A program made the position numbers and the translations under genes. Of a stretch of DNA of 64,000 nucleotides, positions 2,114-30,775 are shown piece after piece. Position 1 is the first letter of the stretch. Each line of letters opens with the position of its first letter. The notes below the pieces were generated by a model. It ran no database searches. It saw nothing but the letters and a program-made list of their open reading frames with translations, and was not told the origin of the DNA. This stretch comes from Thermoanaerobaculum sp. (GTDB lineage: Bacteria > Acidobacteriota > Thermoanaerobaculia > Multivoradales > UBA5704): the NCBI GenBank assembly GCA_021154885.1, contig JAJKHS010000091.1, positions 9,089-73,088 on the forward strand, in the 5' to 3' direction.

Positions 2114-2138
2114 GGGAACGACCGGCGAGCCCGGCGCC

Positions 2139-3074: not shown

Positions 3075-3222
3075 GGCCTGTCTTGCACAGTCTTGCTATC
3101 TTGCGGGGAACCCCCCAATCAAGTGTACTGTTGCCGTGATACACTAGGCAAAGCAGGAACCCAAGAGGACCCGCGAGGGTCTGAAGTAGCAGGACGAACC
3201 GAGAGAGCTCGAGGAGGAGACG

Positions 3223-6630: not shown

Positions 6631-6643
6631 GTGTCAGTGAACG

Positions 6644-7957: not shown

Positions 7958-7970
7958 CCGAATCCTCCCG

Positions 7971-8423
7971 TTAGACGACGATCTTGGACGGGTCCGTGGC
8001 CTCCGGTGAGCCGGGGGTCACGATCGGCGACGCCGGAGTCACCCGCGGCTTCAGCGTCTCGATCTTGGCGTTCAGCTCCTCGACCCGCAGCGTCAGGTTG
8101 CGGATCTCGTCGCGGGTGGGCACGCCCAGGCGATTGAGGGCGGAGCTCAGCTTCTCGTCGAGCTTGTCACCCCAGTTCTCGAAGGCGGACTCGGCCTTGG
8201 CCTTGGCCTTGTCGACCTCGACCCGGACCTTCTCGTTCACCTTGTCCACCTCGACCTTGCCCTTGGCCTCCACGTCGCGGCCACGATCCACCAGCCGGCT
8301 GAAGAGCTTCGAGCCCTCCTCCTCGGCCGCGGCCAGGGCGCCGAGCCCGGCCAGCCAGATGCGGTGCACAGAATCCTTGAGCTCGTCCTGCACGTTCTTC
8401 TCGGTACCGGTCGTTGTTTCCAT
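7971..8423 (-). CDS. Phasin family protein (PHA granule-associated)
   Basis: RIWLAGLGALAAAEEEGSKLFSRLVDRG N-terminal motif and K/E-rich coiled C-terminus typical of TIGR01837-type phasins; sits next to phaR. Confidence 0.7.
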   Translation of the reverse strand: METTTGTEKNVQDELKDSVHRIWLAGLGALAAAEEEGSKLFSRLVDRGRDVEAKGKVEVDKVNEKVRVEVDKAKAKAESAFENWGDKLDEKLSSALNRLGVPTRDEIRNLTLRVEELNAKIETLKPRVTPASPIVTPGSPEATDPSKIVV

Positions 8424-8494
8424 GGCTTACCCCTTTTTGGTGCCGCGCGCTTTCGCGGTGGCGGCCTTCACGGTTTTCACGGTTTGAGTCTCGC

Positions 8495-8980
8495 TCACTT
8501 GACGTCACCTTCCTTGACAATCACCACGTGCGGGCGCTCCGCGGACCGGCCGTTCTTCGGCTCCACGGTCGCCACCGCAAGGTCTTCCCTCTCGAGCTCC
8601 GCGAGCGACGACTCGAGCTGCTCGAGCCGCGCCCTGAGGCTCGACATCTCCTCACGCGCCTTGCGTACCGGCCCCAGGCGGTCGATGAGCCGGTCGACAC
8701 CGTGCTGCACCTGCTCCATGCCGTTGGAAACCGCGCGCTCGCCCAGGCGGACCAGGTCGTGCAGCAGCTCGCTCGGCAGGAAGGAGGTGCCCTTGCGCCC
8801 CTCCTCGAGGATGATCTGGGTCAAGGTCTGAGAGGTGACGTCGTTGTTGGTCGCGTTGTCCACCACCCGCACCTCCTGGCCCTGCCGGATCCAGGCGGAG
8901 ATCTCGTCCAGCGAGACGTACCGGCTCTCCTCGGTGTCATACAGTTTTCGGCTTTCGTAACGCTTGATGAGCCGGATCAT
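8495..8980 (-). CDS. phaR: Polyhydroxyalkanoate synthesis repressor PhaR
   Basis: MIRLIKRYESRKLYDTEESRYVSLDEISAWIRQGQEVRVVDNATNNDVTSQTLTQIILEE matches the PhaR DNA-binding domain almost position by position. Confidence 0.85.
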   Translation of the reverse strand: MIRLIKRYESRKLYDTEESRYVSLDEISAWIRQGQEVRVVDNATNNDVTSQTLTQIILEEGRKGTSFLPSELLHDLVRLGERAVSNGMEQVQHGVDRLIDRLGPVRKAREEMSSLRARLEQLESSLAELEREDLAVATVEPKNGRSAERPHVVIVKEGDVK

Positions 8981-9113
8981 TGGCTTCTCCTTCTTAGGGG
9001 TCGCGGCAATCCCGGGCTGCCGCGCCGAGAGAAACTTTACCGCAGTGCGGCATAGCGTGTCAAGAGATTTGTGACGCGGTGCGGCAAGAGCATCCCTTCG
9101 TGGATCAGGACGC

Positions 9114-17508: not shown

Positions 17509-20151
17509 ATGGACATCAATAAACTGACGCAGAAATCCCAAGAGGCATTGCAGAGCGCTCAGACCAAAGCCCTGCGCTATGGCCACCAGGAGGTGGACGG
17601 CGAGCACCTGCTCCTAACTCTTTTGGAGCAGCCGGAGGGGCTGGTCCCCCGCCTGCTCGCCCGCATGGAGGTGCCCACCGAGGCCATGAAGGCCGAAGTC
17701 GAGCGTGAGCTCTCCCGCCGGCCCAAGGTCTCCGGACCGGGGGCCGAAGCGGGCAAGATCTATCTCACCCAGCGGCTGCAGCAGATCCTGGTGCGGGCCG
17801 AGGACGAGGCCAAGCGGCTGAAGGACGAGTACGTCTCCGTCGAGCACCTGCTGCTGGCAATGATCGAGGAGGCCTCCTCCTCGCCCGTGGGCCGCATCCT
17901 CGCCAGCTTCAATCTCACCCGTGACAAGTTCCTCGCCGTGCTGACGGCGGTGCGGGGCAACCAGCGGGTCACCAGCGCCATGCCGGAGGTCGCCTACGAG
18001 GCCCTGGAGAAATACGGCGTCGACCTCGTGGCCGAGGCGCGGCGCAACAGGCTCGATCCGGTCATCGGCCGCGACTCGGAGATCCGGCGGGTGATCCGCA
18101 TCCTGTCGCGCAAGACCAAGAACAACCCGGTGCTCATCGGCGAGCCCGGCGTGGGCAAGACGGCCATTGTCGAGGGCCTCGCCCAGCGCATCGTGCGCGG
18201 CGACGTGCCGGAGTGGCTGAAGGACCGCGCCCTCTTCTCGCTCGACATGGGGTCCCTCCTCGCCGGCGCCAAGTACCGCGGCGAGTTCGAGGAGCGTCTC
18301 AAGGCCGTGCTCAACGAGATCAAGCAGAGCGAGGGGCGCATCCTGCTCTTCATCGACGAGGTCCACACCATCGTCGGCGCCGGCAAGACCGAGGGCTCGC
18401 CCGACGCGGGCAACCTGCTGAAGCCCATGCTCGCCCGCGGCGAGCTGCACTGCATCGGCGCCACCACCCTCGACGAATACCGCAAGAACATCGAGAAGGA
18501 CGCGGCGCTCGAGCGGCGCTTCCAGCCGGTGATGGTCGATCCGCCGTCCGTCGAGGACACGGTCTCCATCCTCCGCGGCCTGCGCGAGCGCTTCGAAGTG
18601 CATCACGGCGTGCGTATCCAGGACAACGCCCTGGTGGCGGCGGCCGTGCTCTCCAACCGTTACATCTCCGACCGCTTCCTGCCGGACAAGGCCATCGACC
18701 TCATCGACGAGGCCTGCGCCATGATCCGCACCGAGATCGACTCGATGCCCCAGGAGCTCGACGAGGTCACCCGCCGGGTGATGCAGCTCGAAATCGAGGA
18801 GGCGGCGCTCAAAAAGGAGAAGGACAAGGCGAGCCGGGAGCGGCTGGAGGACCTCCGCCGCGAGCTGGCGGATCTCAAAGCCCAGGCCGACGCCATGCGC
18901 GCTCAGTGGGAAGCCGAGAAGCAGTCGATCGAGGAGGTGCGGGCCCTGCGCCAGCAGATCGAGCAGGCGCGCCTGGAGATCGAGGCCGCGGAACGGCAGT
19001 ACGACCTCAACAAGAGCGCCGAGCTGCGCTACGGCAAGCTCCCCCAGCTCGAGGCCCAGCTCCGGGAGAGGGAGGCGATGCTCGGGGAGAAGCAGAAGAG
19101 CGGCGGCAAGCTGCTGCGCGAGGAGGTCACGGATGAGGAGGTGGCCGAGATCGTCTCGCGCTGGACGGGCATTCCGGTCACCCGGCTGGTCGAAGGCGAG
19201 CGCGACAAGCTGCTGCGGCTCGACGAGATCCTCCACCAGCGCGTGGTGGGCCAGGACGAGGCCGTCCGTCTGGTGACCGACGCCGTCATCCGCGCCCGTT
19301 CGGGGATCAAGGACCCGCGGCGGCCCATCGGCTCTTTCATCTTCCTGGGGCCCACCGGCGTGGGCAAGACCGAGCTCGCCAAGACGCTCGCCCAGTCGCT
19401 CTTCGACAGCGAGGACAACATGGTCCGCATCGACATGAGCGAGTACATGGAGCGGCACACCGTATCGCGGCTGATCGGCGCGCCGCCGGGCTACGTCGGC
19501 TACGAGGAGGGGGGCCAGCTCACCGAGGCGGTGCGGCGCAAGCCCTACTCCGTCATCCTCTTCGACGAAATCGAAAAGGCGCACGGCGACGTCTTCAACG
19601 TGCTCCTCCAGATCCTCGACGACGGCCGGGTGACCGACTCGCAGGGGCGGACGGTGGACTTCAAGAACACCGTCATCATCATGACCTCGAACATCGGCTC
19701 CCACCACCTGCTGGAGGGGATGACGCCGGAGGGCGAGATCTCCGAGCGGGCGCGGGACGCCGTGATGCGTGAGCTGCGGAGCCACTTCCGGCCCGAGTTC
19801 TTGAACCGGGTGGACGACATCGTGCTCTTCCGAACGCTGACGCTGCCCGAGATCGAGCGCATCGTCGACCTGCAGACCGAGGACCTGAGGAAGCGCCTGG
19901 CGGACCGCGGCGTCCGTCTGGAGCTCTCGGAGCCGGCCCGGGTGCTGGTGGCCCGTCAGGGTTTCGACCCGGTCTACGGCGCCCGGCCGCTGAAGCGCTA
20001 CCTCCAGCACGAGTTGGAGTCGAAGATCGGCCGCGCCCTGATCGCCGGCGAGGTCCACGACGGAGCCCTCCTCCGCGTGGACGTCAAGGGCGGAGCGCTC
20101 GCCGTCGAGATCGAGAACCCCAAGGAGGCGGAGGTGGCGGTGGGGGTGTAA
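17509..20151 (+). CDS. clpB: ATP-dependent chaperone ClpB
   Basis: 880 aa, two AAA+ modules with Walker A GEPGVGKT and GPTGVGKT, middle coiled-coil domain, canonical N-terminus [18 protein letters not shown]. Confidence 0.9.
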
Positions 20152-20204
20152 GCTCCTGAAAGTGTCGGAAGAAGATTGAGCTGACCGATTCGAGCCAGCG
20201 AGAT

Positions 20205-20233
20205 CAGCGGCAAGCCGGCCGGGCTTTTTCTTT
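20205..20233 (+). terminator. Putative rho-independent terminator after clpB
   Basis: GC stem CAAGCCGGCCGGGCTT followed by TTTTTCTTTC. Confidence 0.45.
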
Positions 20234-20240
20234 CAGAAAC

Positions 20241-20491
20241 CTAATAAGCCTTGTCCCGCGGTAGCACCCGCAGGATGAGCAGAAGCGGACCGGCTGGATC
20301 TTTCTGAAAACGAACCCGCCAATCCCCTACCCGGAGCCGCCACTCTGGAGGGTGGAGGCCCTCCAATGGACATCTCCAGAACCCGTCGAGGCGAAGCGTT
20401 CGACCGCAGCCACTACACGCGCTCGGATCTGCGGGTCGAGCTTTCGCGTGTCTTTCAATGCACGAGGCGCCCAAACGATTTGCCAGCTCAT
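20241..20491 (-). pseudogene. relE: RelE/ParE-family toxin gene disrupted by frameshift
   Basis: ATG at 20491 overlaps antitoxin stop (ATGA). N-terminal frame MSWQIVWAPRALKDTRKLDPQIRARVVAAVERFASTGSGDVH stops at 20327. The C-terminal RelE signature PEWRLRVGDWRVRFQKDPAGPLLLILRVLPRDKAY lies in another frame and ends at 20241. Confidence 0.6.
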
Positions 20492-20778
20492 CCGAGGCCC
20501 AGCTCGCGCTTGACCTCTTCGTGCGAGATGCCTTTGGCCTCCCGAGCCTCACGTCGAGCTTCGGAGAGCCCGCCGTCGGCGTCGTCCGCGTCGCGTTCAT
20601 CGTCCAAGGGTGCCGTCAGCAGGGCCCGAAGCACCGGATCCGACGTGGCCCGCAGGCCCTCAAGGACTCGGGCAGCCACCGGGAGATCCTGCTCGGGCAA
20701 GTCATCGATCAGCCGGTGCAGTGCGTTTCTTCCGCCCATCGTCGCTTCCACCTCCTGTGCAGATAGTTGCCCCAGCAA
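20488..20778 (-). CDS. Putative type II antitoxin partnered with relE
   Basis: Small acidic protein ending ISHEEVKRELGLG, stop overlapping toxin start; true start may be internal Met (MGGRNALHRL). Confidence 0.45.
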   Translation of the reverse strand: MLGQLSAQEVEATMGGRNALHRLIDDLPEQDLPVAARVLEGLRATSDPVLRALLTAPLDDERDADDADGGLSEARREAREAKGISHEEVKRELGLG

Positions 20779-20929
20779 AGGAGCCCCTGACGATCTAGGA
20801 TATCAGACGGAACGCCGGTCCTCTCCGCGAACGGAGCGCCGATACGATGACGTTGGTGTCGAGGACGGCTCCCCAAGGAGGCGGAGGTGGAAGTGGGGGT
20901 GTGAGATCTACCCGGCTCTCCTGAAACCG

Positions 20930-20960
20930 GCAAGCCCGGCCGCGAGGCCGGGCTTTTTTC
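20930..20960 (+). terminator. Terminator hairpin in duplicated clpB 3-prime remnant
   Basis: AAGCCCGGCC-GCGA-GGCCGGGCTT followed by TTTTTC; preceded by a duplicate of the last 9 clpB codons. Confidence 0.45.
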
Positions 20961-21044
20961 TTGGAATCCGACCCGCAGCCTGTAATTGGCGGCGGGCTGC
21001 CATCACTGAATCAGGTGAACGCGCCACCAGAAAGGAGAAAGCGT

Positions 21045-21449
21045 ATGGCCAACATAGAAGGTGAATGGGAAATCCACTCGCGAGCAAAGAAGCCGACGAG
21101 CAACGGCAGACCCAACCGGATCTATTCCGCAAAGACTTGGACGATCAGCCAGAACGGCCGAGGTTGGGAGGCACTCTGGTGGTTTCAGGACGAAGAAGAC
21201 TCACTGCTGAACGAGCTCCCAGGTTCGGACGGTGGATCTTTCATCTTCCACAATGGATACAAGGATTGCACGGTCAGAGCCTGGCTGATCACCAATAGCC
21301 TCATGGTCGGCATCGCGACGAAGTACGAAGCGACCGACGAGAGACACTGCAAGGACGGACCCGTCTCAGACGATGACATCGACGTCTTCGTGGCGATGAG
21401 AAAAGGCCCCGCCGACTATACGGAGGCCACCGCTCGACCGGACCGTTGA
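21045..21449 (+). CDS. Hypothetical protein (134 aa)
   Basis: AAGGAG SD 8 nt upstream of ATG; no recognisable domain; GC visibly lower than flanks. Confidence 0.45.
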   Translation: MANIEGEWEIHSRAKKPTSNGRPNRIYSAKTWTISQNGRGWEALWWFQDEEDSLLNELPGSDGGSFIFHNGYKDCTVRAWLITNSLMVGIATKYEATDERHCKDGPVSDDDIDVFVAMRKGPADYTEATARPDR

Positions 21450-21709
21450 ATCCGAGGGGCTTGGCTACTCTTGCCTGGGAATCCGCAGCAGGTTATAGTC
21501 TGTACGAAAGCGACGAGATTCCATGAGGCCGCCAAGCCCCCGCATGGCGCCACCCTGTTCCATGTGAGGGAGGTGTCGTCACGCGCAACACGATCCTCTT
21601 CGTCCTGCCTCTCACCCTGGCCGGCGGAGCTCAGCCAGGCGGCCCGACCGCTTCGCTCGTCCTGAGCGCGGGCGACTACGTCCAGCTTCGGGCGGAGCAG
21701 GACGTCGAC

Positions 21710-24700
21710 GTGACGGTGAGCGTCCGGGACCCTGCGGGATTTCTGGTGACCGAGGTCGACGCCCTCACTGGACGTATCGAGCCAGAGGTCGTCCGCTTCG
21801 TCGCGGAAGCCCCCGGGATCTACAACATCGCGGTCCGTGCCCTGGAGAGTTTCCCCGGGGCACCACAGCCGAGTCTGGAGATCGACGAGATCCGTCGTGC
21901 GACCTTCCAGGATCGCTGGGTGGCAGCGGAGGAAGCGTCCCTGGCGCGGCTCGACAAGGGCTTCTCCGACCAGGACCCGGACGCTCTGCAGGCGGCGCTC
22001 CCAGCCTACCAAGGAGCTCTGGAGCGGGCTCGCCGGCTTGGAGACCTCCCCCGGCAAGCGGGGCTGGTCTACCGTCTCGGCGTGACTCACAACCGCCGGG
22101 GAGAGGTCGCGGCGGCACGGGACGACTTTGCGGCGGCCCTCGATCTTTACCGCCGGGCCGGCAATCCCAAAGGGATCGCAGCCACCCTCAATCAGCTCGG
22201 ACGCGTGGAGCGGCGCCTGGGAGACGTCGCGGCGGCGGTCCGGGATCTTACAGAGTCGCTGCGCCTGTGGCAGGGCCTGGGTGCGGAAGGCGAAGCGGCC
22301 GACGTCGGCAACAACCTGGGGTTTCTCGAGCAGTCGACGGGACGCTACGACGAAGCTCTGGAGGCCTATGACCGAGCCCTGCAGATCTACCGCAAGCGGC
22401 AGAACCTCGCGCGCCAGGCTTCCGTTCTGAACAATATCGGGGGCATCTATGACGGCCGCGGCGAGCCGGAGCAGTCTCTCCTCTACTACCGGGAGGCCCT
22501 GCCCCTCAGCCGGTCGCTGAAGAACCGGAGCCTGGAATCCGAGTTGCTGAACAACTTCGGCGCCGCCTACGTCCGCCAGGGGAAGCTCCAGGAGGCGCTT
22601 GACTCTTATGTCTCTGCGCTCGAGCTGATGCGCAGCCTCAAAGCCGAGAACCGGGAATCCCAGGTACTGACCAACCTGGCGGACCTGTTCATCCGGCTCG
22701 GTTCCCCCGAAAAGGCCCGGGAGCTTTTCGCCCGGGCGCTGGCTCTCCAGAAAAAGAGCCCCGACCGCCAGAGCGAAGCCGCGATCCTCGGCAACCTCGG
22801 CAGGGTCTCGACGCTCCTTGGCCAGTTCGCCGAAGCAGAGGACTTTCTCAATCAGGCCCTGGAGCTGGCGATCCGCACCGGGGATCGGTCGAGCCAGACC
22901 CTGACCCTGGTGCAGAAGGCTGAGCTCCTCGGCGCCCTGTCGCGACCGGACGAGGCGCGGGTCTCTCTGCATCAAGGCTTGAGCCTCGCCCGCCAGCTCG
23001 GCGATCACGCCGCGGAGCTCGTGGCCCTCGGCGCCCTGGGCCGCTTCGAGGCAGCCCGCGGCGAAACCGAGCCGGCGCGCCGGGACCTGGAGGCGGCGCG
23101 GCGGCTGGCCCAGGAGCTGGGCATCGTCGGGGAAGAGGCGAAGGCGCATCAGGAGCTGGCGCGGCTGGAACGGTCCCAGGGGCACCTGGACGCCGCCCGC
23201 GGTCATGTCGAGACGGCGCTAGCGCGTTTCGAGTCGCTGCGCTCGGACGTCGCGGGGGATCAGTCGCGGACCTCCCTCTTCGCCACCCAGCGCGAAGCCT
23301 ATGACCTCGACGTGGACATTCTCGAACAGCTCCATCTCGATACCCAGGCCTTCGAGGCCGCCGAGCGGGCACGGGCGCGCGGTCTGCTCGACTTCCTCGG
23401 CCAGGCGCAAGTGGACGTGCGGGAGGGCGATCCCCAACTCCTCGCCGAGGAGGGTCGTCTGCGCGCGGAGATCAACGCCAAAGCCGCCCTCCGTGCCGAG
23501 CTGCTGCGCAAATCGGACGGCGCCGCGCAGGCAGGGGCCCTCACACGGGAGCTGACGGCCCTCTCCGCCGAGCACCAGATCGCCGAGGCCCGCCTGCAGG
23601 CGCGCAGCGCCCGCTATGCCCGGCTCACCCAACCCGACACGCGGCTCTCCGAGCTCCAGGCCACGCTCGACGGGAACACCGTCGTCCTCGAATACTTCCT
23701 CGGCGAGCCCCACAGCTACCTCTGGAAAGTCTCCGCGAGCTCCTTCGCCAGCTTCGAGCTTCCCGGCCGGGAACGGATCGAGTCGCTGGCGCGGCGCGTC
23801 CACGAGCAGCTCGGCAGTCTCGGCACCCGAGAGGGTGCGCGAAATCGACAGGACCTCGAAGAGCTCAGCAGGACCCTCCTAGGGCCGGTGCTCGATGGGC
23901 TGCAGAGCGAGCGCCTGGCCATCGTGGCGGACGGCGCTCTCCTCTACGTCCCGTTCGCGGCCCTGCTTATCCCGGCCGAGGATGCCGCGCGCACCCAGGT
24001 GCCCTTGGTGGTCGCTCACGAGGTGGTCCATCTCCCATCGGCGGCCGTGCTGCGGGAGATCCGCCGCGCCCGGCAGGAGAAGCCCCGGCCGGCGGGAGCG
24101 GTGGCCGTCCTGGCGGACCCGGTATTCGGGAAGGACGATCCCCGGGCGCATCAGGCGATGGCCAAGACCCCACCGGCCCACCCCACGGGAGAAGGCCTGG
24201 CGGACCTCCTCGGCCCTCTCCGGCAGTCCCAAGCCGGCGATGGGTACTCCCGCCTGACCTGGAGCGGCCGTGAAGCCGAGCTCGTGGCCGCCGCGGCCCG
24301 GGGGAGGGATGTCCTCATCGCGCGAGGCTTCCAGGCCAGCCGGGAGCTCGCCATCTCGCCGGACCTCGGCCGGTTCCGCATCCTCCACTTCGCCACTCAT
24401 GGCTTTCTGGATGCCCAGCACCCGGAGCTCTCCGGCCTGGTCTTCTCGCAGCTCGATCCCCAGGGCCGCTCCCGCGACGGCTTCCTGCGCCTCCAGGACG
24501 TCTACCATCTCCATCTCAACGCCGACCTCGTCGTCCTCTCCGGCTGCGAGACGGCGCTGGGCAAGAATCTCCGCGGCGAGGGTATCGTGGGGCTCACCCA
24601 CGGCTTCTTCCACGCCGGCGCCTCCCAGGTCCTGGCGAGCCTCTGGCCGGTGCGCGACCGGGCCACGGCCGAGCTGATGCAGCGCTTCTACCACGGCCTG

Positions 24701-24877
24701 TTCCACGATGGCCTCCCCGCCTCCGCCGCTCTGCGCCAGGCCCAGATCTCCCTGTGGAAAGAGCGGACCTGGCGCGATCCCTACTTCTGGGCCGCCTTCA
24801 TCCTCCAGGGCGACTGGCAGGCCGGAGAGCGATGGACGAAAGCTCAGGGCGCGATGTCGAAACCGGTGCCCCCCTGA
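21710..24877 (+). CDS. TPR-repeat protein with C-terminal CHAT (caspase-like) domain
   Basis: Many TPR units (AGNPKGIAATLNQLGRVERRLGD, YDEALEAYDRALQIYRK ...) then CHAT with His HFATHGF and Cys LSGCETALG dyad. GTG start; upstream in-frame signal-peptide-like segment ILFVLPLTLAGGAQ without a clear start codon. Confidence 0.7.
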   Translation: MTVSVRDPAGFLVTEVDALTGRIEPEVVRFVAEAPGIYNIAVRALESFPGAPQPSLEIDEIRRATFQDRWVAAEEASLARLDKGFSDQDPDALQAALPAYQGALERARRLGDLPRQAGLVYRLGVTHNRRGEVAAARDDFAAALDLYRRAGNPKGIAATLNQLGRVERRLGDVAAAVRDLTESLRLWQGLGAEGEAADVGNNLGFLEQSTGRYDEALEAYDRALQIYRKRQNLARQASVLNNIGGIYDGRGEPEQSLLYYREALPLSRSLKNRSLESELLNNFGAAYVRQGKLQEALDSYVSALELMRSLKAENRESQVLTNLADLFIRLGSPEKARELFARALALQKKSPDRQSEAAILGNLGRVSTLLGQFAEAEDFLNQALELAIRTGDRSSQTLTLVQKAELLGALSRPDEARVSLHQGLSLARQLGDHAAELVALGALGRFEAARGETEPARRDLEAARRLAQELGIVGEEAKAHQELARLERSQGHLDAARGHVETALARFESLRSDVAGDQSRTSLFATQREAYDLDVDILEQLHLDTQAFEAAERARARGLLDFLGQAQVDVREGDPQLLAEEGRLRAEINAKAALRAELLRKSDGAAQAGALTRELTALSAEHQIAEARLQARSARYARLTQPDTRLSELQATLDGNTVVLEYFLGEPHSYLWKVSASSFASFELPGRERIESLARRVHEQLGSLGTREGARNRQDLEELSRTLLGPVLDGLQSERLAIVADGALLYVPFAALLIPAEDAARTQVPLVVAHEVVHLPSAAVLREIRRARQEKPRPAGAVAVLADPVFGKDDPRAHQAMAKTPPAHPTGEGLADLLGPLRQSQAGDGYSRLTWSGREAELVAAAARGRDVLIARGFQASRELAISPDLGRFRILHFATHGFLDAQHPELSGLVFSQLDPQGRSRDGFLRLQDVYHLHLNADLVVLSGCETALGKNLRGEGIVGLTHGFFHAGASQVLASLWPVRDRATAELMQRFYHGLFHDGLPASAALRQAQISLWKERTWRDPYFWAAFILQGDWQAGERWTKAQGAMSKPVPP

Positions 24878-25143
24878 GGGAGCGTGCGATTGAACTGGCG
24901 CTTCACCCCCCGATACGTGATGGTCACGTTGTAAGAGCCGGCGGGAAGATCCTGCAGGTAGTACGAGCCATCGTCAGCGGTGACGGCCCGCTGCTTGCTG
25001 GACCCGGAGCTGAAATCGATCAGGGCGTGGGGGACCGGAGCTCTGTTCCCCTGGAACAACACCTTCCCACTGATGGGTGCCGCCACGACATGGGCTGCCG
25101 CAAAGATCAACAGGGCAACGGCCAAGGCGAATATGCGTTTCAT
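24844..25143 (-). CDS. Small secreted protein with carboxypeptidase-regulatory-like beta-sandwich motif
   Basis: Signal peptide MKRIFALAVALLIFAAAHVVAAP; TADDGSYYLQDLPAGSYNVTI resembles CarboxypepD_reg/Cna-B folds. Confidence 0.5.
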   Translation of the reverse strand: MKRIFALAVALLIFAAAHVVAAPISGKVLFQGNRAPVPHALIDFSSGSSKQRAVTADDGSYYLQDLPAGSYNVTITYRGVKRQFNRTLPQGGTGFDIAP

Positions 25144-25168
25144 GATGGGTCTCCTAGATCGTCCATTG

Positions 25169-25687
25169 TCAAGGGCTCGCCGGCGCCACCTGTAACTGCT
25201 GGCTCCTGCGGATACCGGTTTTGGTGTCTGTAACCCGTAGCTCATAGACTCCCGCCGGGATGGGTCGGTAGTAAGCGAACCGGTTGCCTTCCGGCATGAG
25301 AGTGAAGACCGCGTCTCGCGGGATCAGCTCGAGACTCAGACTCTGGCTGCCGAAATCGACCCCCGGAACGTTCTGCACGTCGATGACGCGGGATCCCAGT
25401 GGGCCGGGATGAAGCTTGTCCGGGGCGGTCGTGACCAGTAACAGCTCCTTCGCTTCGCTGTAGGTCTTGGCAGGATTGACGAAGAAGAACACGAGCAGCG
25501 TGAAACCCCAGATGGCGCTCGCGCCCCCCAATTTCACCGCCATGCTGCTCATACCCGGAGCCTGACCGCTCAACTGGGACGCCCCCTTGTTCCAGAAGAG
25601 CATGGCCGCCAGGAAAGCCGCAATCGTAGCGAACACCCACCACCCCGCACAGAACAAGAGGAGATGGTCGAGATTTGAGTCCGGCAT
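25169..25687 (-). CDS. Hypothetical membrane-anchored protein
   Basis: Two predicted TM segments (LLLFCAGWWVFATIAAFLAAMLF; IWGFTLLVFFFV) then soluble domain; upstream in the same operon as 24844..25143. Confidence 0.5.
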   Translation of the reverse strand: MPDSNLDHLLLFCAGWWVFATIAAFLAAMLFWNKGASQLSGQAPGMSSMAVKLGGASAIWGFTLLVFFFVNPAKTYSEAKELLLVTTAPDKLHPGPLGSRVIDVQNVPGVDFGSQSLSLELIPRDAVFTLMPEGNRFAYYRPIPAGVYELRVTDTKTGIRRSQQLQVAPASP

Positions 25688-25835
25688 CTTGTACCTACCT
25701 TTCCATGGAGCTTCCAGCAGGGAAGCTCAGCAAGGTAGGCGCCCGGCTTCTCTGTTTGTTACAGCGTTGCTAAGAGATATGACGTCGAGCAGCTTGGGGA
25801 GCAACTCTTCTCCGTCCCGGTGCTACGATGCACCC

Positions 25836-26306
25836 ATGGAGCCGCTCGACAAGGACATCGTCCGAGCCACAGAGAGCGTTCCCGGGATCTCCGTCCTGGT
25901 GCTCTTCGGCTCCCGGGCGCGAGGGACCCATCGACCGGACAGCGACCTCGACGTGGCGGTCTTGCCGCAGAGCCCGGATTCCCGAGCCCGCCGGCATCTC
26001 CAAACGGACGTTGCCGTGGCCCTCGCCGATCTGGCTCCCGAGGGCCGAGTCGACGTCGTCCTCCTCGACGAGGCCGACGCCGTGCTGCGGCAGCGGATCA
26101 TGGAGACCGGCCGGGTCCTGCTCAACCGGGACGACGAAACCTGGAAAGAGCTGCGGGTCCGTACCATGCGGGAATACGGTGACGGGGAGTGGGCGCGACG
26201 GCTCTACCGCGAAGCCCAGCGCCGACGACTGGAACGAGGTGAGCCAAGTGGTCGATCGGGAAAAGCTCTCGAGTCGCTTAGACGCGTTGGAAAGCTACCT
26301 CGCTGA
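25836..26306 (+). CDS. Nucleotidyltransferase (MNT-type antitoxin-like)
   Basis: GSRARGTHRPDSDLDVAVL minimal nucleotidyltransferase motif (GS-x9-DxD). Confidence 0.65.
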   Translation: MEPLDKDIVRATESVPGISVLVLFGSRARGTHRPDSDLDVAVLPQSPDSRARRHLQTDVAVALADLAPEGRVDVVLLDEADAVLRQRIMETGRVLLNRDDETWKELRVRTMREYGDGEWARRLYREAQRRRLERGEPSGRSGKALESLRRVGKLPR

Positions 26307-26349
26307 GCTGCGGACCTTCCGCGGCACCACCCGCGGGCACCAAACCTGA
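26248..26349 (+). pseudogene. HepT (DUF86) toxin N-terminal remnant, truncated after about 33 codons
   Basis: GTG start overlapping MNT 3-prime end; VVDREKLSSRLDALESYLAELRTFRGTT resembles the HepT N-terminus; premature stop at 26349, no Rx4HxY motif. Confidence 0.4.
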
Positions 26350-26519
26350 CCCTGCAGTCCTCCAAGCCGGCCGATATTTCCCGCGTCTACGCGGAGAGCG
26401 CCCTCTCTGCTTCCCAGGCTGCCCCAGAGCCATCTCCCTCGTCACCTCTAAACACTGAAGGCGACGTCTGTGTCTTCACCACATGGACACGGCGAGAGAA
26501 CGAATCCAACCAGGACACC

Positions 26520-28106
26520 ATGCACGAACGAATCCAGACCTTCGAAGAGCTCGCCCTCCGACTGCGGCCCGACGGGGCCGGCGCCTACGTCGTCCAGGTC
26601 GTCCATTCGCCCTACGGCTGCCGCGACGTCCGATTCGATCTCAAGGATCTCGGATTTCCCTTCGACAGCCTTCGTCGGATCGACTTCTCAGCTTCGGAGT
26701 CCCGTGAGTTGGGAGAGGTCGAGCCTCCTCAGGGCGGGGGCTCGGCGACTCCGGAGACTCTGGGTGGAACGCTGTTTCGGGCTCTCTTCCGGGACGATCT
26801 CCTCTCGACCTTCCTGATGAGCCTGGGCCGTATCCAAGGAAGAAAGGACCTCGGTCTGCGAATCCGGCTGATCTTCGATCCTCTCGATCCCGCCAGCCGG
26901 CAGCTTCTCTCCCTTCCCTGGGAGCTTCTCTACCGCCCCGATACCCGAGATTTCCTGGCGAGGAGCCGGTTCACGCCCGTGGTCCGTTATCTGGAGGTTC
27001 CCCGGCTGACCACCCCGCTGGAGCTGACATCCCAACTGCGTATCCTCGTCGTCCTAGCAAACCCAGCAGGAACGGCGGGCCTCGATCTCGAACGAGAATG
27101 CCAGCAGATGGAGAGCGTTCTCCGAGAGAATCCCCGCATTCGTCTGGAGGTCCTCAGGAGCCCATCGCTCCCCGAAATTCGTTCGGCCCTTCAGAGATTC
27201 GAAGCTCACGTCTTCCACTACATGGGCCACGGCGGCTTCGACTCAAAGTCAGGGGAAGGCTCTCTGCTCTTCGAGGATTCGCAGCGCAGGCCGCAGCCGG
27301 TCGGAGCCGGCGTGCTGGCCGAGGCTCTCAAGAACCTGCCGAGCCTGCGGCTCGTCTTTCTCAACGCCTGCCGCACGGCCCAGGTTTCCGAAGATCCGAA
27401 ATTGGACCCCTTCAGCGGCTCGGCATCGGCCCTCTCTCTGGCGGGTGTACCGGCGATCCTTGCCATGCAACTTCCGATTTCAGACCGCGCCGCTCTGATG
27501 TTCAGCCAGCGGCTCTACGAAATGCTGGCCCAGGCTTTTCCAGTGGATGCCGCGGTCGCGGAGGCGCGGCTGGCCGTCCATCTCGATGCTCCGTCGTCGT
27601 ACGAATGGGCCACGCCGGCCCTTTACATGAGCGTGCCTGACGGTTGCCTCTTTGCTCCGGCTCCCCCCGGCGATGAAGAGGACCATTTCGCCCTCGGTTT
27701 GAGCTATCTGGACCAGGGCCTCTACGACCTCTCGGCTGCCGCCTTTCAGCGCGTTCTGGGCAAAACGACTCACGAGGAGGATCTTCTCTACTACCTCGCG
27801 CTCGCACTCATCGGGGGACAGCGACCAAGGGCCTTGAAGCTCGCCACCATCCGGCAAATCGAGACTTATCTGGCAGCCGCCATCCGCCTGAATGATCGGA
27901 AGTCTCACTACAAGCTCCTTCTCGCAGCGGCCAAGTACGACTACTATGCGAGCAACGGGCTTCGCATCCCTTCACCCCCAGTCGATCAACTCCTGAAAGA
28001 AGCTGCAAATGGAGAGATCGACCCGAAGGAAGTGCGCCTCATGCTTCGACATGCTCCCCTTCCCCCGGGAGACCTCCTCAGCGTCGTCCAGAATTTTTGC
28101 CATTGA
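26520..28106 (+). CDS. CHAT domain protein with C-terminal TPR-like region
   Basis: His HVFHYMGHGGF and Cys VFLNACRTA dyad region typical of CHAT; C-terminal LGLSYLDQGLYDLSAAAFQRVL TPR-like. Confidence 0.65.
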   Translation: MHERIQTFEELALRLRPDGAGAYVVQVVHSPYGCRDVRFDLKDLGFPFDSLRRIDFSASESRELGEVEPPQGGGSATPETLGGTLFRALFRDDLLSTFLMSLGRIQGRKDLGLRIRLIFDPLDPASRQLLSLPWELLYRPDTRDFLARSRFTPVVRYLEVPRLTTPLELTSQLRILVVLANPAGTAGLDLERECQQMESVLRENPRIRLEVLRSPSLPEIRSALQRFEAHVFHYMGHGGFDSKSGEGSLLFEDSQRRPQPVGAGVLAEALKNLPSLRLVFLNACRTAQVSEDPKLDPFSGSASALSLAGVPAILAMQLPISDRAALMFSQRLYEMLAQAFPVDAAVAEARLAVHLDAPSSYEWATPALYMSVPDGCLFAPAPPGDEEDHFALGLSYLDQGLYDLSAAAFQRVLGKTTHEEDLLYYLALALIGGQRPRALKLATIRQIETYLAAAIRLNDRKSHYKLLLAAAKYDYYASNGLRIPSPPVDQLLKEAANGEIDPKEVRLMLRHAPLPPGDLLSVVQNFCH

Positions 28107-28119
28107 AAGGAGAACTATC

Positions 28120-28959
28120 ATGGACAAGAGGCCCAAGCAGAACGACAGAGAGATTGCACTACGAAAGTATTTTGAAGTCGTGACTCGGGAGCGAACTACG
28201 ATTCTGATCGTGATGATCGCAGCAGGAATCGTCTTCGCCCTAGTCGGTTTAGCTTTGCTCTCCTCTCCGGACGGCGCCGCAATGGCCTGGTTCTGCATTG
28301 TTACCGGCTCGGGGATAGCGGCTGTAGGAGGTCTTCGACTGGGTTCCATCGAGGCTCGTTATCGAAGTGCCCTTGCGGCTACCCAACCGCAGCCGTCCGA
28401 CAGTCAGGTTGATGCGTGGTTTCAAGATAGCCGGCAACACCTCATCCTCCATGCCAAGAACCGGCTCAACCTGTTCGGGGCTGAGAGCGATTTTTTCAAG
28501 CCCCTGATCATTGAAGTTCCGACCCTCAGCGCGACCTATGGGGTTCCCACGGAGGACCTGAAGTGGCGCAAGGGAAGTGACGGCACCTTTCGGTTTGCCA
28601 TTCACCACCTCATAGTCATTTATCTGACCGAGCGTCACCTCGCCGCATTCACCTGCGATTTCAATTTCATCCGCGACGTTTCGCTAAACGAGACCACCCG
28701 TGAGTATCACTACCTGGACATCGTTTCCGTGGCTACCTATGAGTACTCCCAAGCGTTCACCCTTCCCACAGGAGAAAAACTCTCAACCTCTCAAACCTTC
28801 CGACTGTCGGTTGGGAGCGGAGAGTACATCGAGGTGAAGTTGGAGAACGACCAACTGCGCAAGATGACCCAGCAGGAAGAGGTCCCCACCTTTGAGGCGG
28901 ATCAGGCCGTGACGACGATCCGCGCCATGCTGAGGGACCGGAAGGCGTTGGCTGCCTAG
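28120..28959 (+). CDS. Hypothetical membrane protein (279 aa), low-GC
   Basis: AAGGAG SD; two N-terminal TM helices (ILIVMIAAGIVFALVGLALL; WFCIVTGSGIAAVGGL); GC about 50% against about 67% background. Confidence 0.5.
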   Translation: MDKRPKQNDREIALRKYFEVVTRERTTILIVMIAAGIVFALVGLALLSSPDGAAMAWFCIVTGSGIAAVGGLRLGSIEARYRSALAATQPQPSDSQVDAWFQDSRQHLILHAKNRLNLFGAESDFFKPLIIEVPTLSATYGVPTEDLKWRKGSDGTFRFAIHHLIVIYLTERHLAAFTCDFNFIRDVSLNETTREYHYLDIVSVATYEYSQAFTLPTGEKLSTSQTFRLSVGSGEYIEVKLENDQLRKMTQQEEVPTFEADQAVTTIRAMLRDRKALAA

Positions 28960-29120
28960 CAAAGGCCCCGAGCCGGAGCCGATGAGCCAAGGCTCAGGCG
29001 TTCCGGCTCGGCCTTGCGAGCTTCACGGCCTTCGCGGATCGTGTACTTCGGAGAAGTTTCTCTTCCAAGGGCTCCTTCTCCCGTGCTGCACGACGCCCAC
29101 CCCTGCTATCATCCCCCGCC

Positions 29121-29777
29121 ATGGCTTCCGACCTGCGCCTCGACAACCTCCCTGCCACCGTCCACCTGTTCGTGGTGAACCGCTTCATCCTCCTGCCGGA
29201 GACGACGCTGCCGCTGACGCTCACGGACGAGCGGTACAGCGGCCTGGTGGAGTCGCTGGCGGCCAGGGAGGGCTATCTCGGGTTCATCCTGTCCCAGGAT
29301 TCCAAGGAGGGCCGGCGCTTTCAGGAGGTGGGGTGCCTGGGCCGCATCCGGGAGATGGAGCGGGATGCCTACGGTCTCAACGTCGTCTTCGAGGGCGTGA
29401 TCCGCTTCCGCGTCCGGCGAGAGGTGCCCAAGGCAGGCAAGGACGACTTCCCGCGCGCCGAGGTCGGGTACGAGGAATTCGCCGCGGACCTGGAGGACGG
29501 GGAGGAGGATCTCGAAGGGTGGGACCTCGAGCGGATCAAGGCCACCCTCATCCAGATCGGACGCAAGGCGACACCTGAGGGCTGGTCGTCGCTGGAGGCG
29601 ATGCCGCCGCGCAAGATCCTCCGCCTGATGGCGCAGACCATGCCGTTCGCTCCCGCCGAGAAGCAGGCCCTGCTCGAAACACCCACCTTCCGCGCCCTCC
29701 TGGAGCTGCTCTTCGCGCTCCTCGCCGTGAATTTCCTCACCACCACGCCGGACGACTCGCAGGCGCAGGTCAATTGA
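29121..29777 (+). CDS. LON N-terminal (substrate-binding) domain protein
   Basis: LPATVHLFVVNRFILLPETTLPLTLTDERY matches Lon N-domain consensus (LPLFPL..VLFPG..LPLHIFEPRY). Confidence 0.6.
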   Translation: MASDLRLDNLPATVHLFVVNRFILLPETTLPLTLTDERYSGLVESLAAREGYLGFILSQDSKEGRRFQEVGCLGRIREMERDAYGLNVVFEGVIRFRVRREVPKAGKDDFPRAEVGYEEFAADLEDGEEDLEGWDLERIKATLIQIGRKATPEGWSSLEAMPPRKILRLMAQTMPFAPAEKQALLETPTFRALLELLFALLAVNFLTTTPDDSQAQVN

Positions 29778-29802: not shown

Positions 29803-30126
29803 CTAACCTTCGTCCACGAACGCCGTCCAGTCGGCGACCGCCTCCTTGAGCTGAGGGAGGGGGAGCTCGAAAGGCTCCGCATTCTCGTCGATCTCGTTGA
29901 CCAGAGAGGCCCCCTGGGAGGAAAGCGTGAGGGTGTAGGAGTTGCCGGTGGTCTCCCAGCGGTCGAGCTGGCCGGCCTCGATGCGGTCGATGGCGCGCAG
30001 GATCGCGCGCCCCTGCCTGCCGCTCCCCTGGAGGTCGCCTTCGAGGAAGCTGGCCAGCACCTCGCTCTGACCCTTGCCGCGGGCGCGGGGGTCGCCGGCG
30101 CTGTCCCAGTAGAATTCGAGCTGCAT
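29803..30126 (-). CDS. Hypothetical small cytoplasmic protein; candidate immunity partner
   Basis: 107 aa acidic protein immediately downstream and co-oriented with the secreted nuclease-like gene. Confidence 0.4.
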   Translation of the reverse strand: MQLEFYWDSAGDPRARGKGQSEVLASFLEGDLQGSGRQGRAILRAIDRIEAGQLDRWETTGNSYTLTLSSQGASLVNEIDENAEPFELPLPQLKEAVADWTAFVDEG

Positions 30127-30151
30127 CGCTCCTCCCTCGCTCCTCAGTCTT

Positions 30152-30685
30152 TCAATCGCGGGTGAAGATGGGATAGGCCGTGTTGATGCGGCCGTTCTGG
30201 TAATACCCCTCGATGGTGAATCCCTGGCCGGAGGGTCCGCGGAACTTCTCCGAGCCGCCCGTGGTGCGCCCCGCGAAAGCGTGGAGAACGGCCTGGATCA
30301 CGGCGTCGCGGCTCAGGCGGTCAGGATAGAGGGTCGAGCGCTTGGGGAGCCAGTCCGAGCCGGAACGGATCTCCACCTCGGCGGTGTAGACCCCGGCGCG
30401 GTTCGGCCGGTCGACGACGCGCACCAGCCGCGCTCCCTGCGGGTCCCGCCCGCCTGGCCGGGAGTGGAAGCCCACCGGCTTGCCCCGCGAGTTGATCTCC
30501 CCCTCGAAGATGTGGGTAACGTTGACCGGCGGCGAGGTGCGGCTCCACTCCTCCGCCGGCCGCCGGCTCCGTCCCGGCTGTGAGGACCGGGACCGGGACC
30601 GCGACCACCCCTCGCCGTCTGCCAACAGCGAGACCACCAGCGCCAGCGCCACGGTCGTCCAGAGCAGCCTCGTATGTTTCAGCAT
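30152..30685 (-). CDS. Secreted protein with putative bacterial EndoU-like nuclease/toxin domain
   Basis: Signal peptide MLKHTRLLWTTVALALVVSLLADG; THIFEGEINSRGKPVGFHS ... GYYQNGRINTAYPIF motifs recalled as similar to EndoU_bacteria toxin domains (unverified). Confidence 0.4.
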   Translation of the reverse strand: MLKHTRLLWTTVALALVVSLLADGEGWSRSRSRSSQPGRSRRPAEEWSRTSPPVNVTHIFEGEINSRGKPVGFHSRPGGRDPQGARLVRVVDRPNRAGVYTAEVEIRSGSDWLPKRSTLYPDRLSRDAVIQAVLHAFAGRTTGGSEKFRGPSGQGFTIEGYYQNGRINTAYPIFTRD

Positions 30686-30775
30686 GGGCGAACGATATCC
30701 GAAGCGTTGAGCCCTCACCACCCTCCCGGGATTCAGGTTAGTGGCCGGCGGGACGCCGGCGGTCCCAGGGGGCCT

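Follow-up and report, generated by a model that had tools for sequence, protein, structure and literature searches.

A CHAT protease fused to a TPR-like adaptor and its two-pass membrane partner, a candidate modular conflict system in Thermoanaerobaculum sp.

Introduction

In a genome of Thermoanaerobaculum sp., about 9 kb of DNA with a lowered GC content at third codon positions (GC3) separates clpB (17509–20151) from a gene for a Lon-substrate-binding domain (Lon-N; 29121–29777, Pfam match 1.1e-20). The interval belongs to a stretch of 64,000 nt (GCA_021154885.1, contig JAJKHS010000091.1), hereafter the window, and contains two genes for caspase-like CHAT proteins and, at its far end, a gene for a membrane protein. 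A first reading of the sequence, called here the original prediction, had suggested that all genes from 21045 to 28959 may form an uncharacterised protease-based conflict or defence module, with the membrane protein as target or effector. Which of these genes belong together, and what might they do?

Our analysis narrows the question to two adjacent genes, those encoding the second CHAT protein (CHAT2, 528 amino acids (aa); 26520–28106, plus strand; Pfam CHAT 4.2e-30) and the membrane protein (279 aa; 28120–28959, plus strand), which has two transmembrane (TM) segments and a beta-rich domain. We propose that 26520–28959 is one operon encoding a modular, membrane-anchored conflict system of the abortive-infection type, in which the membrane protein would be a sensor or scaffold and the CHAT protease an effector; we put this reading at a little under an even chance. 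The idea of a conflict module carried over to this pair, and the rest of the island proved not to be conserved with it. All genes listed in the original prediction were found at the positions given there, and both CHAT proteins have, as it had said, intact dyads (His237/Cys284 and His897/Cys946) and opposite domain orders.

Results and Discussion

The CHAT2 and membrane-protein genes are found together

A word-indexed search for relatives of the membrane protein returned 18, each of them from an Acidobacteria-like metagenome. Eight loci (designated below by L numbers) were inspected using gene tables and tblastx, and the tblastx comparison also recovered miscalled genes in L011. The gene order CHAT, a protein of ~238 aa that we call mid, and membrane protein was observed in L001, L003, L004, L006, L008, and L011, whereas L002 and the window have fused forms. 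CHAT2 and the membrane protein are a conserved unit, co-located in every related and independent context recovered, so the objection that these genes might never meet elsewhere does not hold. The flanks of the cassette differ from locus to locus. The window, L002, and L004 have clpB and Lon-N, and L001 has Lon-N alone; L003 has a CsgG-like gene, L006 and L007 have radical-SAM and MlaD genes, and L008–L011 have YceI and HTH genes.

The two genes of the window are 13 nt apart. The strong Shine-Dalgarno sequence predicted for the membrane gene is present (AAGGAG, 28107–28112, plus strand), 7 nt before the ATG. It directly abuts the stop codon of CHAT2 (28104–28106), which implies co-transcription.

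The cassette also deviates in composition. In every copy of the Thermoanaerobaculia type its GC3 is 0.52–0.73, compared to 0.83–0.96 in flanking genes, which answers the second objection, that a compositional deviation might be absent. The membrane gene has a GC3 of 0.68 and a GC content of 56% against the 68% of the window; the value of about 50% given previously was too low. Toxin-antitoxin genes (MNT/HepT, HicB/PIN, UPF0175, and PemK) neighbour these cassettes. Purifying selection was detected in both genes, with dN/dS values of 0.13–0.22 for CHAT2 (CHAT core and TPR-like part, compared to L001 and L002) and of 0.12–0.19 for the membrane gene, the value being 0.19 against its 90%-identical nearest relative. 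As a separate observation, the dS of the cassette between the window and L002 (0.77–1.34) exceeds the value for the neighbouring clpB (0.36) two- to fourfold, and this suggests that the cassette evolves faster, is under weaker codon constraint, or has a non-vertical history.

CHAT2 is a caspase-like protease with a short helical C-terminus

The Pfam CHAT domain (PF12770) covers residues 82–367 of CHAT2 with 105.6 bits against a cut-off of 24. What had been described as an unknown N-terminal region of 190 aa therefore shrinks to residues 1–80 (26520–26759, plus strand), a beta-rich element conserved across the CHAT2 family, with strands at 7–17, 23–29, and 37–39 in the AlphaFold2 (AF2) model. 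Over an alignment of 24 sequences, E9, L13, and G33 of this element are invariant and P31 and Y32 nearly so, and no Pfam family matched it. The catalytic His237 lies in YMGHGG (codon 27228–27230, plus strand) and Cys284 in LNACRT (codon 27369–27371, plus strand); H237-G238 as well as N282 and C284 are invariant in the 24 homologues.

The AF2 model has a mean pLDDT of 85.6. The nearest PDB structures in a Foldseek search were the SAVED-CHAT structure 8TL0 (5e-10), separase (5FC3), and Csx29 (8EEY, 8e-9, and 7ZOQ), all with a probability of 1.00. By profile, dyad, and fold, CHAT2 is a CHAT peptidase of clan CD with a caspase/separase-like fold.

Two known CHAT systems were compared on this basis. 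The original prediction had drawn a parallel to the TPR-CHAT protein of type III-E systems, and this parallel stands at the level of the fold and nowhere beyond it. Like Csx29 of the type III-E Craspase and like SAVED-CHAT, CHAT2 combines a CHAT/separase-like protease fold with a helical repeat domain in the same protein, but compared to Csx29 its domain order is reversed (CHAT, then TPR-like) and sequence identity is 12–21%. Neither gRAMP/Cas7-11 nor Csx30/31 was detected, the island genes, the Lon-N flank, and the syntenic flanks of L002 and L004 all being non-Cas by Pfam. This agrees with the earlier remark that no Cas gene is present among the island genes and flanks examined. A direct-repeat search of 19.8–29.4 kb gave no family resembling a CRISPR array. 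A SAVED-CHAT identity was considered and rejected: the PADLOC SAVED_CHAT match (2.3e-15) covers profile positions 102–270, which correspond to CHAT2 residues 172–373 and fall inside the Pfam CHAT domain, and no SAVED domain was matched in Pfam.

The C-terminal part of CHAT2 (residues 383–528; 27666–28103, plus strand) is what we call the TPR-like or mid domain. The claim of a C-terminal TPR is right in that a short TPR-like helical domain exists and wrong in that it does not consist of canonical repeats. Pfam finds a weak TPR_16 match at residues 390–431. In the AF2 model, helices span residues 386–527, and Foldseek relates them to designed TPR arrays (E 2.5e-3, probability 1.00). Among CHAT2 family homologues the C-termini vary and include FGE-sulfatase, AAA_16, TPR, TIR, PASTA, Big_2, and HHH domains.

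The window copy as a fusion of two genes

Analysis by BLASTP showed that residues 1–386 of CHAT2 correspond to the separate CHAT protein of the relatives (82% identity to L001) and residues 383–528 to residues ~92–236 of the separate mid protein. On this sequence evidence, the window CHAT2 is an in-frame “all-in-one” fusion of a CHAT protease with a TPR-like adaptor. Where mid is a separate protein, as in most relatives, it is made of a zinc ribbon (CPYCxExI...RCKHCHA), a Gly-rich motif, and the TPR-like domain. At the fusion junction (27639–27700, plus strand; ...PDGCLFAPAPPGDEEDHFALGLSYLDQG), the CHAT tail, the zinc ribbon, and both copies of the Gly-rich motif are deleted in frame, and L001, L004, and L008 have ~150 extra residues at this point. 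L002 carries a different fusion of 596 aa which keeps one copy of the motif. P0071 and P0077 are CHAT–TPR-like fusions of 525–528 aa with 37–40% identity; they are followed by a 243-aa paralogue of the membrane family (hidden Markov model (HMM) E 5e-28) and then by a multi-TM protein and a zinc-ribbon/TM/TPR protein. Such direct fusions thus recur in nature.

The genes behind these fusions form a second recurrent three-gene set, observed in L008 (6002–8715), L055 (7589–9809), and L056 (7120–9327): a membrane-family paralogue of 243–247 aa, a multi-TM protein of ~216–221 aa, and a zinc-ribbon/TM/TPR protein of 207–379 aa. The set lies behind a fused CHAT–TPR-like gene in L055 and L056 and behind the first cassette in L008.

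A short motif shared by neighbouring genes

In loci of the Thermoanaerobaculia type, the tail of the CHAT protein and the mid protein have in common a motif of ~23 aa, TVGGxGxxxIGGxGxxIxGGIHF. Its variants are specific to the locus: GSFNIGGSGH stands in both copies of L008 and NQVGxIH in both copies of L001, and mean motif identity is 0.62 within a locus compared to 0.45 between loci. A locus in which the protease is a separate Peptidase_C14 caspase (L015; 6e-18) has the same C-terminal motif as the CHAT tail. In Bacteroidota and Actinomycetes, a helical protein of 110–119 aa is encoded ahead of mid, and both proteins start with a Q/N-rich motif of ~22 aa, for example MTTFNQQGQQVNHQYN compared to MTDFDQRGQRVDHQFN. 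Motif pairs in adjacent genes were found in L001, L003, L004, L006, L008, L013, and L015, and pairs of small protein and mid in L017, L020, L023, L035, and L040.

The residues Q, N, G, V, and I make up 0.51–0.60 of the motifs and K, P, and L 0.04–0.05, against backgrounds of 0.22 and 0.23, respectively; the CHAT-tail/mid motif has values of 0.60 and 0.04. Length, composition, position, and presence in adjacent genes are the published criteria for BASS motifs (10.1101/2020.01.06.895854, section 9), and BASS11 of the E. coli Bab/Agp defence system is reported to have TIR, CHAT, and EAD7 as partners (10.1101/2024.11.07.622273). By length, composition, position, adjacency, and its occurrence in split and all-in-one forms, our motif fits this description, and its composition, position, and covariation suggest that it may be amyloid in nature. 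It is likened to BASS11 by description.

The fused window copy has no such motif. One explanation is that it is a decaying remnant in which the in-frame loss of the zinc ribbon and of the coupling motifs inactivated signalling. The window copy is indeed short of ~150 residues compared to its closest relatives (L001, 82% identity), which are split and keep the motif; the adjacent HepT gene is truncated, and a ParE gene upstream in the island is degraded. However, the reading frame, the dyad, the TPR-like domain, and the membrane gene are intact, the dN/dS values lie at 0.12–0.22, and the AF2 model of the fusion is confident (pLDDT 85.6). Independent direct fusions are known from L002, the P0071/P0077 clade, and L036, besides fusions with TIR, and the exact protein was found on 3–4 contigs. 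We therefore regard decay as very unlikely.

The membrane protein defines a large family

The AF2 model of the membrane protein (pLDDT 83.7) begins with a short conserved helix at the N-terminus (REIALRKYF), which is followed by two long TM helices and a linker helix; then comes a beta domain of about nine strands, capped by a conserved C-terminal helix. TM1 spans residues 27–46 and TM2 residues ~53–72. Both termini are basic and the loop between the TM helices is short and acidic; by the positive-inside rule, the N-terminal helix and the beta-rich domain are predicted to face the cytoplasm. The conserved core is the C-terminal domain of ~185 residues (aa ~95–279; 28402–28956, plus strand), distant matches covering only positions ~95–280 of the profile. 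Y198, T206, F227, G234, I267, R268, L271, and R272 are nearly invariant in an alignment of 60 family sequences.

An exhaustive profile search with the membrane-protein alignment returned 946 clusters (at 50% identity) at E<=1e-3, of which 484 reach E<=1e-10. No match to the membrane protein was found in Pfam (down to E 10, with 16 members), PADLOC, NCBIfam, or the PDB sequences, and a Foldseek search of its fold against PDB and BFVD gave no match at E<=1e-3. A gasdermin, SLATT, or Pepco identity was ruled out, since neither the profiles (16 members) nor the fold matched. Some members (P0168, P0149, and P0158) have extra domains, namely a C-terminal FHA domain, a C-terminal double zinc ribbon, or an N-terminal GYF_2 domain.

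The constant partner of the membrane protein is a TPR-like domain

To place the pair in a wider context, one genome per species was scanned with a 20-sequence alignment of the membrane family, which gave 42 loci; a metagenome scan returned 8 loci, most of them already recovered. The 42 loci cover at least 6 phyla and come from Thermoanaerobaculia, Blastocatellia, Chloroflexota, Bacteroidota (Chitinophagaceae), Gammaproteobacteria, Desulfobacterota, and many Actinomycetes. In 40 of them, an iterated HMM for the TPR-like part of mid found this domain encoded on the same strand directly ahead of the membrane gene. In P0256, a natural fusion protein, the TPR-like domain precedes the membrane protein in one chain. 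Because of this pairing and this fusion, the constant unit is the TPR-like domain with the membrane protein and not the CHAT protease with the membrane protein. The mid proteins have only zinc-ribbon and weak TPR matches, and there is no NTPase in the cassette.

What stands on the N-terminal side of the TPR-like domain is exchangeable. It is TIR_2 in L019 (1.5e-20) and L028 (1.1e-16), EAD7 in L027 (6e-20), a short CHAT domain in L036, and one or two zinc ribbons in L022, L026, and L004. In Thermoanaerobaculia-type loci, the partner is a separate CHAT gene. A protease is missing altogether from more than 30 of the 42 loci.

These data bear on a second explanation, the main rival, in which the membrane protein is a toxin licensed by the protease, following the logic of gasdermins, EACC1, and Pepco. 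CHAT2 would cleave the membrane protein or the adaptor and free a pore-forming or membrane-disrupting form, and the TPR-like domain would hold the substrate. Caspase-like and trypsin-like proteases encoded beside latent membrane effectors are precedents (10.1101/2025.11.14.688446; PMC7159879). The tight translational coupling of the two genes across a 13-nt gap, the TM hairpin followed by a beta-rich domain, and a weak Pfam CyanoTRADDas_TM match of the two-TM region in P0168 (E 1e-3) are in line with this idea, and the loops at 121–130 and 211–220, modelled with lower confidence, could be cleavage sites. However, the membrane protein is much alike across loci with TIR, with EAD7, with a zinc ribbon, and without any enzyme; a TIR NADase needs no proteolytic substrate; no Gasdermin, SLATT, EACC1, or Pepco family match was found; and no variable or autoinhibitory segment specific to proteases sets the CHAT-linked copies apart. 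Since most members lack a protease and the membrane protein is alike in protease- and TIR-linked loci, this explanation is weakened, and we hold it to be unlikely. The earlier suggestion that the membrane protein is a protease target or effector is not the best reading: its partner across these mostly protease-free genomes is the TPR-like domain, and a constant sensor or scaffold is the likelier role for it.

A third explanation is a membrane regulatory module outside defence, for example in envelope stress or developmental signalling, in which the TPR-like/membrane pair would be housekeeping and CHAT, TIR, and other domains would be lineage-specific additions. Six Streptomyces species (L040, L043, L048, L050, L052, and L053) have a trio of small protein, mid, and membrane protein. 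In L040, where the trio has a native GC3 of 0.91–0.98, Pfam identifies a ROK regulator and the operon of an ABC sugar transporter as its neighbours; MscS and HNH genes lie downstream. The upstream genes of the other five loci match those of L040 in size, which suggests that the trio occupies the same chromosomal locus across the six species. Such a function is favoured by the FHA, GYF, and zinc-ribbon fusions of the family, which are of a kind typical for signalling, by the presence of the anti-sigma factor DdvA (8ROT) among the structural neighbours of CHAT2 found by Foldseek, and by the lack of a PADLOC match. It is opposed by the TIR_2, EAD7, and caspase-family domains, which characterise conflict and cell-death systems (PMC7159879, PMC8195603), by the strongly deviant composition and the differing insertion sites among Acidobacteria, by the toxin-antitoxin genes clustered around the cassette, and by the paired BASS-like motif. 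On balance, a function outside defence seems improbable to us.

A proposed mechanism

Induced proximity activates TIR domains, caspases, Death-like adaptors, and amyloid motifs. The set of effectors found here is of the proximity-activated kind and, together with the layout of constant and exchangeable parts, leads us to propose the membrane protein and the adaptor as a clustering sensor platform. The constant core would be a short TPR-like adaptor and a two-pass inner-membrane protein, serving as a sensor or an assembly platform at the membrane. A swappable, proximity-activated effector would sit on the N-terminal side of the adaptor, in the window a caspase-like CHAT protease. In split relatives, the protease would be coupled to the adaptor through the shared, co-varying BASS-like motif of ~23 residues. 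In the window, where the protease is fused straight to the adaptor, motif and zinc ribbon would have become dispensable and been lost. A trigger would alter the state of the membrane protein, the adaptor would cluster, and His237/Cys284 of CHAT would be activated; the protease could then cleave cellular targets and cause growth arrest or death.

A constant region with an exchangeable N-terminal effector is the organisation of prokaryotic conflict systems, as in the EAD principle and in EACC systems (PMC7159879, PMC8195603), and it has been demonstrated for Agp/Bab. Our module obeys the same rules, using components that the profile libraries searched do not contain, and no description of a membrane-protein-based version of this layout was found in the literature and profile libraries checked.

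Several points weigh against the proposed conflict system. No PADLOC model matches the core of adaptor and membrane protein. The Streptomyces trio resembles a gene set with a conserved role in the cell more than it resembles mobile defence genes. EAD7 usually marks effectors that are recruited to another core (Kaur et al., 2020, PMC7159879). The membrane protein could also be the executioner, with the roles of the two proteins exchanged. The covariation of the motif could stem from gene conversion instead of coupling, and the window copy, which lacks the motif and stands beside a truncated HepT, may be a decaying derivative.

A broader version of the proposal is that adaptor and membrane protein are a widespread, so far unrecognised immune sensor, NTPase-free and resident in the membrane, which would signal to interchangeable effectors by fusion or by amyloid-like templating and so extend amyloid signalling beyond NLR and Agp sensors to a membrane sensor. 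This version is tentative and we think it rather more likely wrong than right; its suggested effectors, held with the same reserve, are CHAT or C14 caspases, TIR, partners recruited through EAD7, and small helical proteins.

If the proposed conflict system is real, a family that has escaped annotation (the 946 clusters) would supply the constant part of a modular system for cell death or immunity whose effector toolkit is that of eukaryotic innate immunity, with caspase-like proteases, TIR domains, and Death-like adaptors. A constant sensor, a swappable effector, and a short templating motif would then be built on a membrane protein rather than on an NTPase of the NLR type. With split and fused versions existing side by side in nature, the coupling mechanism would be directly testable.

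Comparison with known systems

Bab/Agp and other BASS pairs (Dyrka et al., 2020, 10.1101/2020.01.06.895854; Ibarlosa et al., 2024, 10.1101/2024.11.07.622273) come close in several respects. There as here, adjacent genes share a motif of ~23–25 aa which is rich in G, N, Q, V, and I and poor in K, P, and L. The effector (here CHAT or a C14 caspase) carries this motif at its C-terminus, the sensor-side protein close to its N-terminus. CHAT, TIR, and EAD7 effectors, split and “all-in-one” forms, and TPR-type helices on the sensor side are also common to both. However, the sensor side here has neither an NLR/STAND NTPase nor GreA/B-C-PIN, and instead a TPR-like domain of ~145 aa with an obligate two-TM partner. 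In addition, the motif of mid follows a zinc ribbon, the small helical protein carries the motif N-terminally rather than C-terminally, and the window copy is free of it.

The EACC1-caspase “System 4” (PMC7159879; Evans et al., 2025, 10.1101/2025.11.14.688446) is likewise membrane-associated and has a protease of the caspase superfamily. An N-terminal protease with many alternative C-termini recurs in the CHAT2 family (FGE-sulfatase, AAA_16, TIR, PASTA), and both systems are enriched in filamentous or “multicellular” phyla. EACC1 differs in being a protein of ~115 aa with a single TM segment, encoded 5' of the caspase and cleaved by it, whereas the membrane protein here is encoded 3' of the protease, has 279 aa with two TM segments and a beta-rich domain, and is tied to a TPR-like domain. 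No conserved small open reading frame (ORF) of the EACC1 type was found upstream of CHAT in the window, L001, L002, L004, L006, or L008.

With bacterial gasdermin–protease operons the pair shares a caspase-like protease beside a membrane-active protein, and an abortive-infection logic is plausible in both cases; compared to gasdermins, the membrane protein matches neither fold nor family, already contains a TM hairpin, and occurs mostly without a protease. The EAD10/effector-TPR-GreA/B-C-PIN system (Kaur et al., 2021, PMC8195603) also joins a constant C-terminal region to a variable N-terminal EAD or effector, but the constant region is entirely different here and a second constant gene, that for the membrane protein, is required.

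The giant TPR-CHAT protein and the rest of the island

The first CHAT gene of the island encodes a giant TPR-CHAT protein of 1055 aa (21710–24877, plus strand; Pfam CHAT 1.4e-63), which we place outside the conserved module as a co-resident gene. Its CHAT domain spans residues 715–1035 (215.5 bits against a cut-off of 24), TPR_12 is matched in five stretches, and the dyad residues are His897 (HFATHG) and Cys946 (LSGCET). It belongs to a different CHAT subfamily, with no cross-match to the CHAT2 HMM. A giant TPR-CHAT is found near the cassette in 3 of about 12 contexts: the window, L003 (22-bp gap), and L054 (5.4 kb upstream). The closest homologues (50% and 38% identity) are beside an ECF sigma factor and beside CHASE2/SpoIIE genes, respectively. 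As it is of a separate subfamily, rarely co-located, and has homologues in unrelated neighbourhoods, the giant was rejected as a core component.

L003 is the only context in which a giant TPR-CHAT is clearly co-operonic with the cassette. Its tight four-gene operon (1150–8846) encodes a TPR-CHAT protein of 1102 aa, a 934-aa CHAT protein with an N-terminal extension of ~570 aa without Pfam match, mid, and the membrane protein.

The well-supported and flanking genes of the window have a GC3 of 0.87–0.96. The compositional deviation attributed to the island is real for most of 21.0–29.0 kb; the giant, with a host-like GC3 of 0.84, is the exception. The island begins with an orphan ORF of 134 aa (21045–21449, plus strand; GC3 0.70), unrelated to the cassette, which has no match in Pfam, PADLOC, or NCBIfam and no counterpart in related loci. 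Behind the giant, a convergent pair on the minus strand (24844–25687) consists of a CarboxypepD_reg secreted beta-sandwich protein (24844–25143, or to 25245; Pfam 1.8e-10; signal-peptide-like N-terminus) and a 172-aa 2-TM protein (25169–25687; two hydrophobic segments by hydropathy). By tblastx, this pair has no homologous segment in any related locus, and we take it as unrelated cargo.

On the plus strand, 25836–26349 holds an MNT gene and a HepT stub, toxin-antitoxin cargo which recurs beside the cassette. The MNT nucleotidyltransferase with a truncated HepT partner is as originally described: MNT is intact (~25836–26306; Pfam Polbeta 9e-17), and the first ~35 codons of HepT are left (~26231–26349), compared to 137 aa in the intact HepT of L006. 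An MNT/HepT type VII toxin-antitoxin pair has an intact MNT and an intact HepT of about 135 aa, and the truncated HepT places the window copy outside this type. Analysis by tblastx located MNT(-HepT) directly upstream of the cassette in L006 and MNT downstream of it in L002.

Could the whole of 21045–28959 nevertheless be one protease-based assembly, with a cascade of two CHAT proteases, a toxin-antitoxin remnant, secreted proteins, and the membrane protein? The giant upstream of the cassette in L003 and L054 as well as in the window, and MNT(-HepT) beside the cassette in the window, L002, L006, and possibly L013 (an unannotated 172-aa ORF), are in favour. However, the other ~9 cassette contexts lack the giant, which has its homologues elsewhere and is host-like in GC3, and neither the orphan nor the CarboxypepD_reg/2-TM pair has a counterpart in relatives. 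In L002 and L004 the cassette comes directly after clpB, which suggests that the ~6.3 kb of other cargo intervening in the window is a later insertion. We consider a single assembly highly improbable. The genes of 21045–26349 are independent cargo of a variable clpB/Lon-N hotspot, and the annotation of the locus is corrected accordingly: the two-gene unit is what matters, and the remaining island is a hotspot with miscellaneous cargo.

The flanks of this hotspot are syntenic between the window, L002, and L004, with aminotransferase, DAO, ferredoxin, DnaJ, and ClpB genes on one side and Lon-N, UPF0231, EndoU, ABC1, CBS, and T2SSE genes on the other. The interval itself varies among related Thermoanaerobaculia-like genomes (20151–29121 in the window, 5933–10289 in L002, from 5783 onward in L004). 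Besides the cassette, it contains MNT, HicB, and PIN genes in L002 and UPF0175 and GH16 genes in L004; in the window it holds ~9 kb of mixed cargo.

The toxin-antitoxin insertion proposed at clpB was borne out. A 38-nt direct repeat (20118–20155 and 20871–20908; 89% identity) duplicates the 3' end of clpB including the stop codon and flanks a 753-bp segment with a degraded ParE-like ORF (20241–20600, minus strand), of which only the C-terminal half is matched by Pfam ParE_toxin. The segment has the appearance of an insertion at the end of clpB which supplied the gene with a new terminus in place of the old one. Marks of a mobile element were searched for: the window has no tRNA, 19.5–30.0 kb has no Rfam match, no long inverted repeats bracket the cassette, and no long terminal repeat marks the island. 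A promoter and terminator scan of 26250–29200 was uninformative.

Within the inserted segment, ~300 bp (20494–20792) resemble positions 8985–9281 of L001 (tblastx 77–92%, several frames) and have no Pfam or Rfam assignment. In L001 this sequence is found on the opposite side of the cassette, where it separates the membrane gene from Lon-N, and its displacement points to rearrangement inside the hotspot.

Few kilobases from the cassette, L008 (9263–11398) and L011 (6315–8483) encode a 66-aa Cys-rich protein, without precomputed Pfam match, directly before a CHAT-FGE-sulfatase. This is another caspase-type conflict gene pair in the neighbourhood of the cassette. Just outside the island of the window, two genes at 29803–30721 (minus strand) resemble, by synteny with L002 and gene size, a UPF0231-like protein (107 aa) and an EndoU_bacteria-like nuclease (189 aa), and this predicted pair could be a toxin with its immunity protein.

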